Below are positions 5,039-7,193 of a DNA stretch of 64,000 nucleotides, piece by piece. Origin of the DNA: an uncultured Alphaproteobacteria bacterium (GTDB lineage: Bacteria; Pseudomonadota; Alphaproteobacteria; Rhizobiales; Xanthobacteraceae); contig CAWGFC010000005.1 of the NCBI GenBank assembly GCA_963821785.1, positions 27,065-91,064 of the forward strand, written 5' to 3'. How positions within the stretch are numbered: position 1 is the first letter of the stretch; each line of letters opens with the position of its first letter. Below the pieces are notes generated by a model. It was not told the DNA's origin, did no database searches, and saw only the letters and a list, made by a program, of their open reading frames with translations. Both the position numbers and the translations under genes were made by a program.

Positions 5039-5491
5039 CTACTGCAGCTTCGCCTTCACCATCCCGCTAGCCTTGGCCATGTCCATCTGCCCGGCATATT
5101 TGCCGCGCAAGGCGCCGATCACTTTGCCCATGTCCTTCATGCCGGCGGCGCCTGTGTCCTTGATCGCGGCCTCGATCGCCGCCGTCATCTCGGCTTCCGA
5201 CATCTGCTTCGGCAGATAGCCGGAGATGATGGCGATCTCCTCCTGCTCCTGCTTGACCAGGTCGGCGCGGTTGCCCTTCTGGTAAAGCTCGACCAATTCC
5301 TGGCGCTGCTTGATCATCTTCTGCAGCACGGGGAGCACCTCGGCGTCGCCGAGCGGCGGCTTGCCCTGCCCACGCGCCTCAATGTCGGCGTTCTTGAGCG
5401 TGGAATTGACCATGCGCAGGGTGGAGACCGCCCGCTCGTTCTTGGCCTTCATCGCCTCGGTCAAAGCTTTGTTGATGTCGTCGCGCAGCAC
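5039..5491 (-). CDS. GatB/YqeY domain protein
   Basis: LRDDINKALTEAMKAK...KQRQE...KDMGKVIG; GTG start at 5491 with an AAGGAAAGG RBS. Confidence 0.9.
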   Translation of the reverse strand: MLRDDINKALTEAMKAKNERAVSTLRMVNSTLKNADIEARGQGKPPLGDAEVLPVLQKMIKQRQELVELYQKGNRADLVKQEQEEIAIISGYLPKQMSEAEMTAAIEAAIKDTGAAGMKDMGKVIGALRGKYAGQMDMAKASGMVKAKLQ

Positions 5492-5667
5492 GGGGAGGCC
5501 CTTTCCTTGTGGTGTTGACTCGGCGTTCAGAATAATCAAAAATTTTCATGTGCGGGTCTGTTGAGGCGCTGCATGTTGCATCCGGGAATATCCCCGGGAC
5601 GGTATATCCGTCGATCTCCCCGTCACACCGAGCCCAAATTATGGAAAGCGAAGATATCGACTTGTCC

Positions 5668-5805
5668 ATGAAGGGCAAGAAGCGTCGGCGTTCTGGCCGT
5701 GGCGGTCAGAGACCCGATATTAATCCTGCGCGTTACCGCAGGACGCGGCATGTAAGACGATCCTCACGTAGAGTAAGACGGTCCTCACGTAGAGGCAGAC
5801 GGTAA
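5668..5805 (+). CDS. Putative 45-aa Arg-rich (protamine-like) small protein
   Basis: MKGKKRRRSGRGGQRPDINPARYRRTRHVRRSSRRVRRSSRRGRR*; stop directly followed by an intrinsic terminator. The start is uncertain (5641 or 5548 are in frame). Confidence 0.4.
   Translation: MKGKKRRRSGRGGQRPDINPARYRRTRHVRRSSRRVRRSSRRGRR
5752..5805 (+). repeat. 21-bp tandem repeat (about 2.5 units)
   Basis: gtaagacgatcctcacgtaga / gtaagacggtcctcacgtaga / ggcagacggtaa. Confidence 0.9.
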
Positions 5806-5811
5806 ACGAGG

Positions 5812-5840
5812 AGCCGCCGGGTACAAGCCCGGCGGCTTTT
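5812..5840 (+). terminator. Intrinsic terminator
   Basis: agccgccggg-tacaag-cccggcggct followed by ttt. Confidence 0.8.
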
Positions 5841-5963
5841 ACAAGCCACTATCTGTTCTTTCCGATAAAGTACGGGCCTCAATCAAAATCTCTCTAATAG
5901 CTGCCTGGGGGCAGCGTGGGGCCGCCCCTTGCCTCGCCTCATATAATACGCAACTAAGAGGCC

Positions 5964-7193
5964 ATGACCCAGACGAAAGCGACCCCCGGCGCCGGGACTT
6001 CCGGCGAGGCTTGGGCTGAGCCCAAGCCGACGGCGCTTTTGGTGCTGGCCGACGGAACCGTGCTGGAAGGTTTCGGCTTAGGGGCCACCGGCACCGCTGC
6101 CGGCGAGGTCTGCTTCAACACCGCCATGACCGGCTACGAGGAGATCCTCACCGACCCTTCTTACGCAGGGCAGATCATCACCTTCACCTTCCCGCATATC
6201 GGCAATGTCGGCACCAACGAGGACGACATCGAGACCGTCAACATGGCGGCGACGCCGGGCGCGCGCGGGGTGATCCTGCAAAGCGCCATCACCGCGCCGT
6301 CGAACTACCGCGCCACGCGCAACTTGAACGACTGGCTCAAAGCCCGCGGCATCATCGGGCTTTGCGGAATCGACACCCGCGCGCTGACCGCGCTGATTCG
6401 CGTCGAGGGCATGCCCAACGCGGTGATCGCGCACGCGCCCGACGGCAAATTCGATCTCGCCGCGCTGAAGAAAGAAGCGGCAAGCTGGCCGGGTCTGGTC
6501 GGCATGGACCTGGTGCCGATGGTCACCTCCGGCCAACGCTTCACCTGGGACGAGACGCCCTGGGTGTGGGACCACGGCTTCGGCCGACAGGACAAACCGG
6601 AATTTCACGTCGTCGCCATCGACTACGGTATCAAGCGCAATATCCTGCGCCTGCTCGCCGGCACTGGCTGCAAGGTGACGGTGGTGCCGGCCAAGACGTC
6701 CGCCGAGGACATCATGGCGTTGAAACCCGACGGCGTGTTCTTGTCCAATGGGCCCGGAGATCCGGCGGCGACCGGCGAATATGCCGTGCCGGTCATCAGG
6801 AAGCTGATCGACTCAGGCACGCCGACCTTCGGCATCTGCCTTGGCCACCAGATGCTCGGCATCGCCATCGGCGGCAAGACCATGAAGATGCATCAGGGCC
6901 ATCACGGCGCCAATCATCCGGTGAAGGATTTGACCACCGGCAAGGTCGAGATCACCTCGATGAACCACGGTTTCGCGGTCGACAAGGACTCGCTGCCGAA
7001 GAACGTCGAGCAGACGCATGTTTCTCTGTTTGACGGCTCCAACTGCGGCATCGCCCTGAAGGATAAGCTGGTGTTCTCGGTGCAGTACCACCCCGAGGCC
7101 TCGCCCGGCCCGCGCGACAGTCACTATCTCTTCACGCGCTTTGTCGACATGATGCGGCAGGCCAAGAGCGCGGCCAAGCGCAAGATCGCGTAA
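5964..7193 (+). CDS. carA: Carbamoyl-phosphate synthase small subunit
   Basis: GEVCFNTAMTGY, SNGPGDP, GICLGHQ, SMNHGF and QYHPE motifs. Confidence 0.98.
   Translation: MTQTKATPGAGTSGEAWAEPKPTALLVLADGTVLEGFGLGATGTAAGEVCFNTAMTGYEEILTDPSYAGQIITFTFPHIGNVGTNEDDIETVNMAATPGARGVILQSAITAPSNYRATRNLNDWLKARGIIGLCGIDTRALTALIRVEGMPNAVIAHAPDGKFDLAALKKEAASWPGLVGMDLVPMVTSGQRFTWDETPWVWDHGFGRQDKPEFHVVAIDYGIKRNILRLLAGTGCKVTVVPAKTSAEDIMALKPDGVFLSNGPGDPAATGEYAVPVIRKLIDSGTPTFGICLGHQMLGIAIGGKTMKMHQGHHGANHPVKDLTTGKVEITSMNHGFAVDKDSLPKNVEQTHVSLFDGSNCGIALKDKLVFSVQYHPEASPGPRDSHYLFTRFVDMMRQAKSAAKRKIA

Follow-up and report, generated by a model that had tools for sequence, protein, structure and literature searches.

The window, by which we mean the whole stretch of 64,000 nucleotides analysed here, comes from a soil bacterium (Pseudolabrys) and carries two housekeeping genes that diverge from a common intergenic gap. 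To the right lies carA, which encodes the small chain of carbamoyl-phosphate synthase (5964..7193, + strand; Pfam PF00988 and PF00117), and to the left lies yqeY, which encodes a GatB/YqeY-domain protein (5039..5493, - strand; Pfam PF09424, E 2.8e-48). The longest ORF of yqeY occupies 5039-5539 (-) and begins with a TTG at 5539; since the alignment with its relatives begins only at about residue 13-17 of this long form, the real start of the gene is the GTG at 5493. The GTG start is also favoured by a Shine-Dalgarno sequence, GGAAAGGG, and the form starting at TTG 5539 would wrongly swallow the promoter region of the cassette described below. Among contigs sampled as one genome per species, the locus has its nearest relatives in MAGs of Pseudolabrys and other Xanthobacteraceae, where YqeY identity reaches 93%.

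The gap between the two genes (5494-5963) measures 470 nt in the window and ~88-90 nt in most of 80 related loci, and only its last ~60 nt, from ~5898-5903 to 5963, align with the gaps of relatives. The proposal of the first-pass annotation that the element is inserted between yqeY and carA thus agrees with gap length and alignment alike, which together delimit a species-specific insert of ~390 nt at 5510..5897. In metagenome contigs of close relatives, the positions ~5493-5506 are joined to ~5941-5943 through different sequence, and from these comparisons the yqeY-carA gap is a hypervariable, recombination-prone spot. In other Pseudolabrys and Xanthobacteraceae species, the same gap serves as a hot spot in which small, unrelated cargo genes reside (loci L006, L017, L024-L028, L057, L064, L071 and L072), among them genes for secreted proteins of 88-94 aa, for membrane proteins or lipoproteins of 78-122 aa that have no Pfam match, for a CMD-family decarboxylase (PF02627) and for a YnfA/UPF0060 protein. 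The ORF carried by the insert has a GC content of 55% against 63-64% in the flanking genes; this difference and the rare codons presented below give the element the foreign look noticed at the outset, and the insert is probably an accessory mini-cassette acquired horizontally. An imperfect inverted repeat of 14 nt (5495-5508 / 5867-5880, 79%), whose left arm is the Shine-Dalgarno region of yqeY, brackets the insert in the window and was not seen in the related locus L025.

The insert holds the predicted signals of a complete transcription unit on the + strand. A sigma-70-type promoter, TTGACT-17 nt-AAAAAT (5515..5543, +), is the sole promoter-like site in the interval 5300-6200 and places the predicted transcript start at ~5550. 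It is followed by a 5' leader of 91 nt (5550..5640, +), by an ORF of 54 aa plus its TAA stop (5641..5805, +) and by an intrinsic terminator (5808..5840, +) that was detected by inverted-repeat search and RNAfold and consists of a GC-rich stem of 10-14 bp, a short loop and UUUU. The perfect 10-bp inverted repeat formed by 5812-5821 with 5828-5837 precedes TTTT, the stem computed by RNAfold counts 14 bp, and the TAA at 5803-5805 lies 3-6 nt before the stem. The initial reading had described a strong terminator within 7 nt of the stop and had deduced from it a dedicated + strand transcript; the terminator is as described, and the predicted promoter and leader complete a candidate unit of that kind.

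A second copy of this arrangement occurs in L025, a MAG whose CarA is 87% identical to that of the window. A stretch of 350 nt in the same gap aligns there to 5506-5854 (nhmmer E 1e-105 to 1e-114) and possesses the promoter hexamers, the leader, the ATG, the TAA and a terminator, the product being 43 aa long. The L025 promoter, TTGATC-17-AATAAT, keeps both hexamers and the 17-nt spacing around a spacer of diverged sequence. Three further alleles, rebuilt from tables of metagenome contig differences and not read as sequences, were added to the comparison: varA, from peat and lake, carries 11 substitutions relative to the window and encodes 54 aa; varB, from soil, carries 16 listed substitutions and a 21-nt deletion and encodes 47 aa; varC, from soil and L025-like, carries 22 differences and 3 inserted leader bases and encodes 43 aa. 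The five products (54, 54, 47, 43 and 43 aa) have a net charge of +13 to +17 and contain ~33% Arg. In the terminator, a C>T change at 5818 yields a G-U pair and an A>G change at 5823 falls in the loop in strain alleles, and different GC hairpins occupy the same place after the stop in L025 and varC.

Of the 79 related loci in which the yqeY-carA gap could be inspected, 78 lack the element, and a combined nhmmer and motif scan of the window and 80 related loci found no copy beyond that of L025. Its distribution is patchy, because ~29 species whose CarA is closer than that of L025 do not carry it, and it is known from two Pseudolabrys species, that of the window and that of L025. At ~1310-1700 of L025, between the terminator of the element and carA, lies an opposite-strand ORF of ~60-105 aa with a weak match to DUF6010 (E 0.0012, below the Pfam cutoff), which represents further unrelated cargo.

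The leader is 74% identical between the window and L025 and includes blocks with 10/10 nt identity. Its folded part corresponds to the first 77 nt (5550-5626), for which the RNAalifold consensus gives four helices on the + strand: P1 (5550-5556/5619-5626), which starts at the first base predicted to be transcribed, P2 (5570-5572/5578-5580), P3 (5582-5587/5592-5597) and P4 (5598-5602/5608-5612). Across the five alleles, 99% of the pair cells are paired, and three pairs show compensatory changes, one each in P1, P3 and P4. Strain substitutions sit in loops or restore pairs, as does the A>G change at 5587, which closes an A-C mismatch of P3. The covariation score was matched by 7 of 500 column shuffles, a figure obtained from five related sequences with a structure derived from these same sequences. 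These observations suggest that the leader structure is conserved across the five alleles, although the covariation signal is thin, the family having only two species-level members.

Conservation of this kind invites the idea that the transcript acts as a non-coding structured sRNA of ~290 nt, of which the 5' domain and the terminator would be functional and the open frame incidental. The leader is indeed at least as conserved as the ORF, with 74% against 67% identity to L025 and with 3.3% against 6.4% of substituted positions in varB; besides the compensatory changes in the helices, the whole transcript folds better than its shuffled versions (z = -5.0), the codon usage of the ORF is non-genic and its ribosome-binding site is weak, being a Shine-Dalgarno-like GAG at 5630-5632 in the window and GGAG in L025. 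Against such an RNA, cmscan of the interval 5300-6100, run at E up to 10, found no Rfam match: the top hit scored 17 bits where the gathering score is 52, and every hit was noise. The 7-bp hairpin tcctgcg/cgcagga inside the ORF, which had been advanced in support of an RNA alternative, does exist on the + strand at 5724-5730 / 5737-5743 but belongs to the window lineage only: varB keeps it with one G-U pair, and neither L025 nor varC has a counterpart. The conserved structure is that of the leader at 5550-5626. The remaining arguments bearing on a non-coding RNA come from the reading frame itself.

The ORF encodes MESEDIDLSMKGKKRRRSGRGGQRPDINPARYRRTRHVRRSSRRVRRSSRRGRR, a peptide with a net charge of +17 and 35% Arg. 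The first-pass annotation had started it at the internal ATG 5668..5670 (+), and the composition that it gave for the resulting 45 aa is correct (19 Arg, 3 Lys, 1 Asp and 0 Glu). The start itself has to be moved, since this codon is not conserved (GTG in varB, ATC in L025), whereas ATG 5641 and the TAA are conserved in all five alleles. A longer ORF of 85 aa from ATG 5548 was considered and rejected, as it overlaps the predicted transcript start and promoter and as the extension is closed in L025 by an in-frame TAA located 6 nt upstream of the ATG. This stop codon and the conserved promoter upstream also exclude that the ORF is the tail of a degraded larger gene, an outcome against which the original proposal had been hedged. 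Richness in Arg by itself is not beyond chance, as ~11 other places of this 64% GC window, in off-frames of genes, reach 19 or more Arg within 45 aa. It is the conserved package of promoter, leader, ORF and terminator that goes beyond chance. In the window, a further imperfect inverted repeat of 23 nt (5643-5665 / 5841-5863, 74%) matches the opening codons of the ORF to a stretch located just after the terminator; it was not seen in L025 and could matter only in read-through transcripts.

At the protein level, the alleles share an N-terminus of acidic or hydrophobic character, M-x-x-[DE]-D-[IV]-D-L-[SP], a centre of the form RRRR...GG (RGG-like) and a C-terminus SRRGRR, which is kept between the window and L025 although four of its six codons have changed. 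AlphaFold2 predicted no fold for the peptide apart from one short helix (pLDDT 62, pTM 0.20), and these low scores fit an intrinsically disordered polycation. The nucleoid-condensing or antimicrobial roles that the first-pass annotation had envisaged are therefore guesswork, as neither an export signal nor a partner gene is present. The tail is built from VRRSSRR units encoded by a 21-nt tandem repeat (5752..5803, +), for which TRF reports 2.4 copies with 89% matches over 5754-5803, as the duplication described at first sight had implied. The two full copies (5752-5772 and 5773-5793) are 95% identical. Repeat number differs between strains (2.4 against 1.4 copies), varB having lost one unit through its 21-nt deletion at 5761, and L025 has no repeat.

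The codons of the ORF had been called atypical for this genome, and they prove to be so. In 26 host genes, AGA, CGA, GTA and TCA account for 0.7%, 4%, 4.2% and 4.3% of their synonymous sets, and AGA encodes 6 of the 19 Arg of the ORF; its codon score of -0.53 lies below those of all 413 host-gene windows of 54 codons. Codon usage this atypical fits a foreign origin, and it fits non-coding DNA as well.

Several lines of evidence bear on translation. The frame of the ORF (+0) is the sole frame free of stops in all alleles; each of the other frames, on either strand, is interrupted by a stop in two or more of the four alleles checked, one minus-strand frame being open in L025 and varC. Antisense ORFs, which were considered as candidates, are broken in the window alleles. 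All indels in the ORF (3, 6, 24 and 21 nt) are multiples of three, whereas none of those in the leader is (2, 2, 19, 1, 2 and 1 nt), and this contrast, as read from the alignments, is the classical pattern of coding as opposed to non-coding DNA. The products of the window and L025 align over 43 residues, of which 23 are identical, and 10 of these 23 are specified by different codons; the number of synonymously changed codons is 10 in frame 0 and falls to 5 and 2 in the other frames. When the 42 differences are placed at random, at least 10 synonymous codons arise with P=0.026 (pN/pS 0.53), and omega is estimated at about 0.4-0.5 with P about 0.03. Comparisons inside the two allele groups yielded 11 synonymous and 11 non-synonymous events, for an expected synonymous share of 0.27-0.31 (P ~0.01-0.04). 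These selection tests involve few events and reach nominal significance only. Frame kept across indels, synonymous excess and conserved start and stop are the generic marks of a coding gene, here at nominal significance and with small numbers.

These same marks weigh against the transcript being a pure structural RNA: an incidental frame would hardly be expected to take up indels in multiples of three while the leader never does, to show a synonymous excess in frame 0 only, and to conserve its ATG and TAA as the sole frame open in all alleles. We therefore regard a purely non-coding sRNA as improbable; an RNA with a dual function is possible. Counting on the opposite side, against a coding function, are the atypical codons, the weak Shine-Dalgarno sequence, the small number of events and the closest pair of alleles, window and varA, which differ by 3 non-synonymous changes and 1 synonymous change. 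On balance, we consider it likely from these sequence comparisons that the ORF is translated.

The ratio found in the closest pair is also what one would cite for a functionless remnant, that is, foreign DNA that became trapped at a recombination hot spot and has since drifted neutrally, with a frame open by chance. The patchy and very narrow distribution of the element, the unrelated inserts occupying the same gap in other species and the atypical codon usage and GC content would all accord with such an origin. Neutral drift accounts poorly for other features: at ~30% DNA divergence between the two species, the promoter hexamers and their spacing, the leader helices, the start, the stop, the frame and the terminator all persist; the indels of the ORF are all in frame; and in varB third positions have changed (10.6%) at ~2.5 times the rate of first and second positions (4.3%) or of the leader (3.3%). 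A functionless remnant consequently appears improbable to us, to about the same degree as the non-coding sRNA. The comparison with relatives that the first-pass annotation had suggested, bearing on frame conservation and on variation in repeat number, comes out on both counts in favour of a translated microprotein, with in-frame indels and with 2.4 against 1.4 repeat copies.

Database searches gave the peptide no relatives. Hmmscan with the 45-aa ORF and with the 85-aa ORF that contains the 54-aa protein matched 0 families of Pfam-A at E up to 1; NCBIfam yielded only L23 at E 3.7, which is noise; PHROGs and PADLOC yielded 0 families at E up to 1, and a profile search of the PDB no match. A word-indexed search of 5.8 billion protein clusters found no match, an exact look-up of 8 versions of the ORF among 15 billion proteins found none present, and a HMMER profile scan of 1.84 billion representatives returned one spurious match to a repetitive protein of 2694 aa. 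The ORF was never predicted by gene callers. At the DNA level, blastn against plasmid and phage collections found no match; a pattern made of two leader blocks matched viral contigs 9 times, in every case by chance and inside unrelated genes. A degenerate pattern of the N-terminus at the protein level had no match in viral contigs, and its 8 matches in metagenome contigs were all due to chance, for instance in transposase-like ORFs.

The position of the unit raises the question of its relation to carA. CarA belongs to arginine and pyrimidine synthesis, and the ORF, upstream of carA and co-oriented with it in both species, contains 19 Arg codons, many of them rare, and stops 3-6 nt before a terminator. 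It could accordingly be imagined as an arginine-sensing leader peptide, in which slowing of the ribosome on rare Arg codons when charged tRNA-Arg is scarce would alter termination, so that expression of CPSase would track arginine. A precedent for regulation through Arg codons of a short upstream ORF is Salmonella speF orf34, in which two consecutive Arg codons lie in a conserved regulatory domain physically coupled to speF (PMC6386406). Like orf34, the ORF of the window is short, contains Arg codons and precedes, in the same orientation, a gene of arginine-linked metabolism. The comparison ends there, as 14-19 Arg are spread over the peptides of the element, the element is not consistently linked to carA, and an alternative structure was sought without success: when the nascent RNA was folded without the 3' arm of the terminator, the 5' arm had no strong or conserved antiterminator partner in either the window or L025. 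The run of Arg codons ending by a terminator is thus in place, and the antiterminator helix and a conserved linkage to carA are not.

Further observations point away from such an attenuator. A conserved block lies immediately upstream of carA, outside the insert and downstream of the terminator (5898..5963, +; CTGGGGGCNGC...CCCCTTGCCTC...TATAATACGCAACTAAGAGGCC), and is 77-93% identical in ~47 related loci. It is also present in loci without the insert: most related species are devoid of the element yet keep this ~60-nt block; therefore, carA has its own signals. In L025, the terminator and carA are ~450 nt apart, a distance that includes the opposite-strand ORF. The pattern of rare codons is not conserved either, the L025 ORF having 1 AGA and 5 CGC, and the conservation of both ends of the peptide, like its length of 54 aa, is atypical for attenuator peptides. 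An attenuator of carA is in our opinion very improbable, the least likely of the readings considered, and both this reading and that of a pure sRNA are less likely than a translated microprotein.

We favour, with a moderate degree of confidence, the interpretation that 5510-5897 is an accessory, probably horizontally acquired and self-contained unit in which a disordered polycation is translated behind a conserved leader. It builds on the observed anatomy of the unit, on the fact that all its parts are conserved in the five alleles, which represent two species, and on the signs of selection acting on its frame. According to this translated-unit model, the sigma-70-type promoter would start an mRNA of ~290 nt at ~5550, the first 77 nt of which would fold into the conserved four-helix leader at the 5' end. 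The weakly Shine-Dalgarno-led ATG 5641 would then open the frame of 54 codons, and transcription would end at the strong intrinsic terminator after the stop. The product would be a disordered polycation whose tail lengthens or shortens by seven-residue VRRSSRR units. Judged by composition alone, it would bind polyanions, with RNA or the ribosome as the most likely targets and DNA as a possible one, and nucleic-acid binding in general is probable. The leader, for its part, may control the stability or the translation of its own mRNA, perhaps by binding the peptide; structured mRNA leaders are a common autoregulatory device of RNA-binding proteins. A bolder version, which we put forward as a speculation with rather little chance of holding in full, would see the peptide as founding a new family of bacterial, polycationic RGG/RS-like RNA-binding microproteins: it would bind its own leader in an autoregulatory fashion, its free form would coat or remodel RNA or ribosomes, the module would move between strains through the hot spot by carA, and the tail would be tuned by the 21-nt repeats.

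Known systems offer partial parallels to the proposed microprotein. The Tpr ORF of E. coli is encoded in tandem DNA repeats that close the tyrT transcript. Tpr (b1229) has been presented as a 'small protamine-like protein' (PMC3141248), and it resembles the peptide of the window as a tiny, Arg-rich, protamine-like ORF located on tandem repeats, without an established function and easily missed by annotation. The two share no sequence similarity in any search, and Tpr is borne on the transcript of a tRNA operon, whereas the ORF of the window has its own promoter, structured leader and terminator within an accessory insert. A second comparison is provided by the Arg-rich DUF1127 proteins of Alphaproteobacteria, which include the RNA-binding CcaF1 of Rhodobacter and the SDPs of Agrobacterium (PMC8034643, PMC12501420, PMC10117765). 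They are likewise small (<50-70 aa), Arg-rich, alphaproteobacterial and often overlooked. The peptide of the window has no match to PF06568 at E up to 1 and thus falls outside this family; moreover, DUF1127 is a widespread conserved domain, whereas the element occurs in no more than two Pseudolabrys species and its product differs in composition, being RGG/RS-like, with 33% Arg and a repeat tail.

With ribosomal proteins of the bL34, bL36 and bS22 type, the candidate shares its size class, its extreme pI and its coding by a stand-alone small gene. It differs from bL34, bL36, bS21 and bS22 in having no ribosomal match in NCBIfam or Pfam, the L23 hit being noise, and in a gene that is not universal among relatives. 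The histone-H1-like or Hc2 polycations (PF07382) form another class of highly basic proteins; here again Pfam and NCBIfam give no match, and the peptide is rich in Arg, Ser and Gly, with only 3-4 Lys, instead of being made of Lys/Ala repeats.

Ultra-basic microproteins are thus already known as a kind, and what is new in the putative member described here is that it is a sequence orphan, rich in Arg, Ser and Gly, and accessory instead of core. If translated, it would add an Arg-rich peptide to the ultra-basic bacterial microproteins that are missed by gene finders and by trypsin-based proteomics. It would also indicate that genes of this sort can be accessory cargo and not core components, residing as a foreign self-contained module in an intergenic hot spot. 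The association of a conserved leader with an Arg-rich peptide would furthermore constitute a compact and testable case of possible peptide-RNA autoregulation, of an importance limited by the narrow distribution of the element in two Pseudolabrys species.

The element leaves the knowledge of carA regulation unchanged. The conserved block upstream of that gene, which reads CTGGGGGCNGC..GGCGGCCCCTTGCCTC..TATAATACGCAACTAAGAGGCC-ATG and hence ends with TATAATACGCAACTAAGAGGCC directly before the start codon, could serve as a regulator site or represent an unusually short leader. A GC-rich palindrome occurs within it, as does a TATAAT just 15 nt upstream of the start codon, and a sigma-70-like -35 box is missing at a distance of 17 nt from this hexamer.
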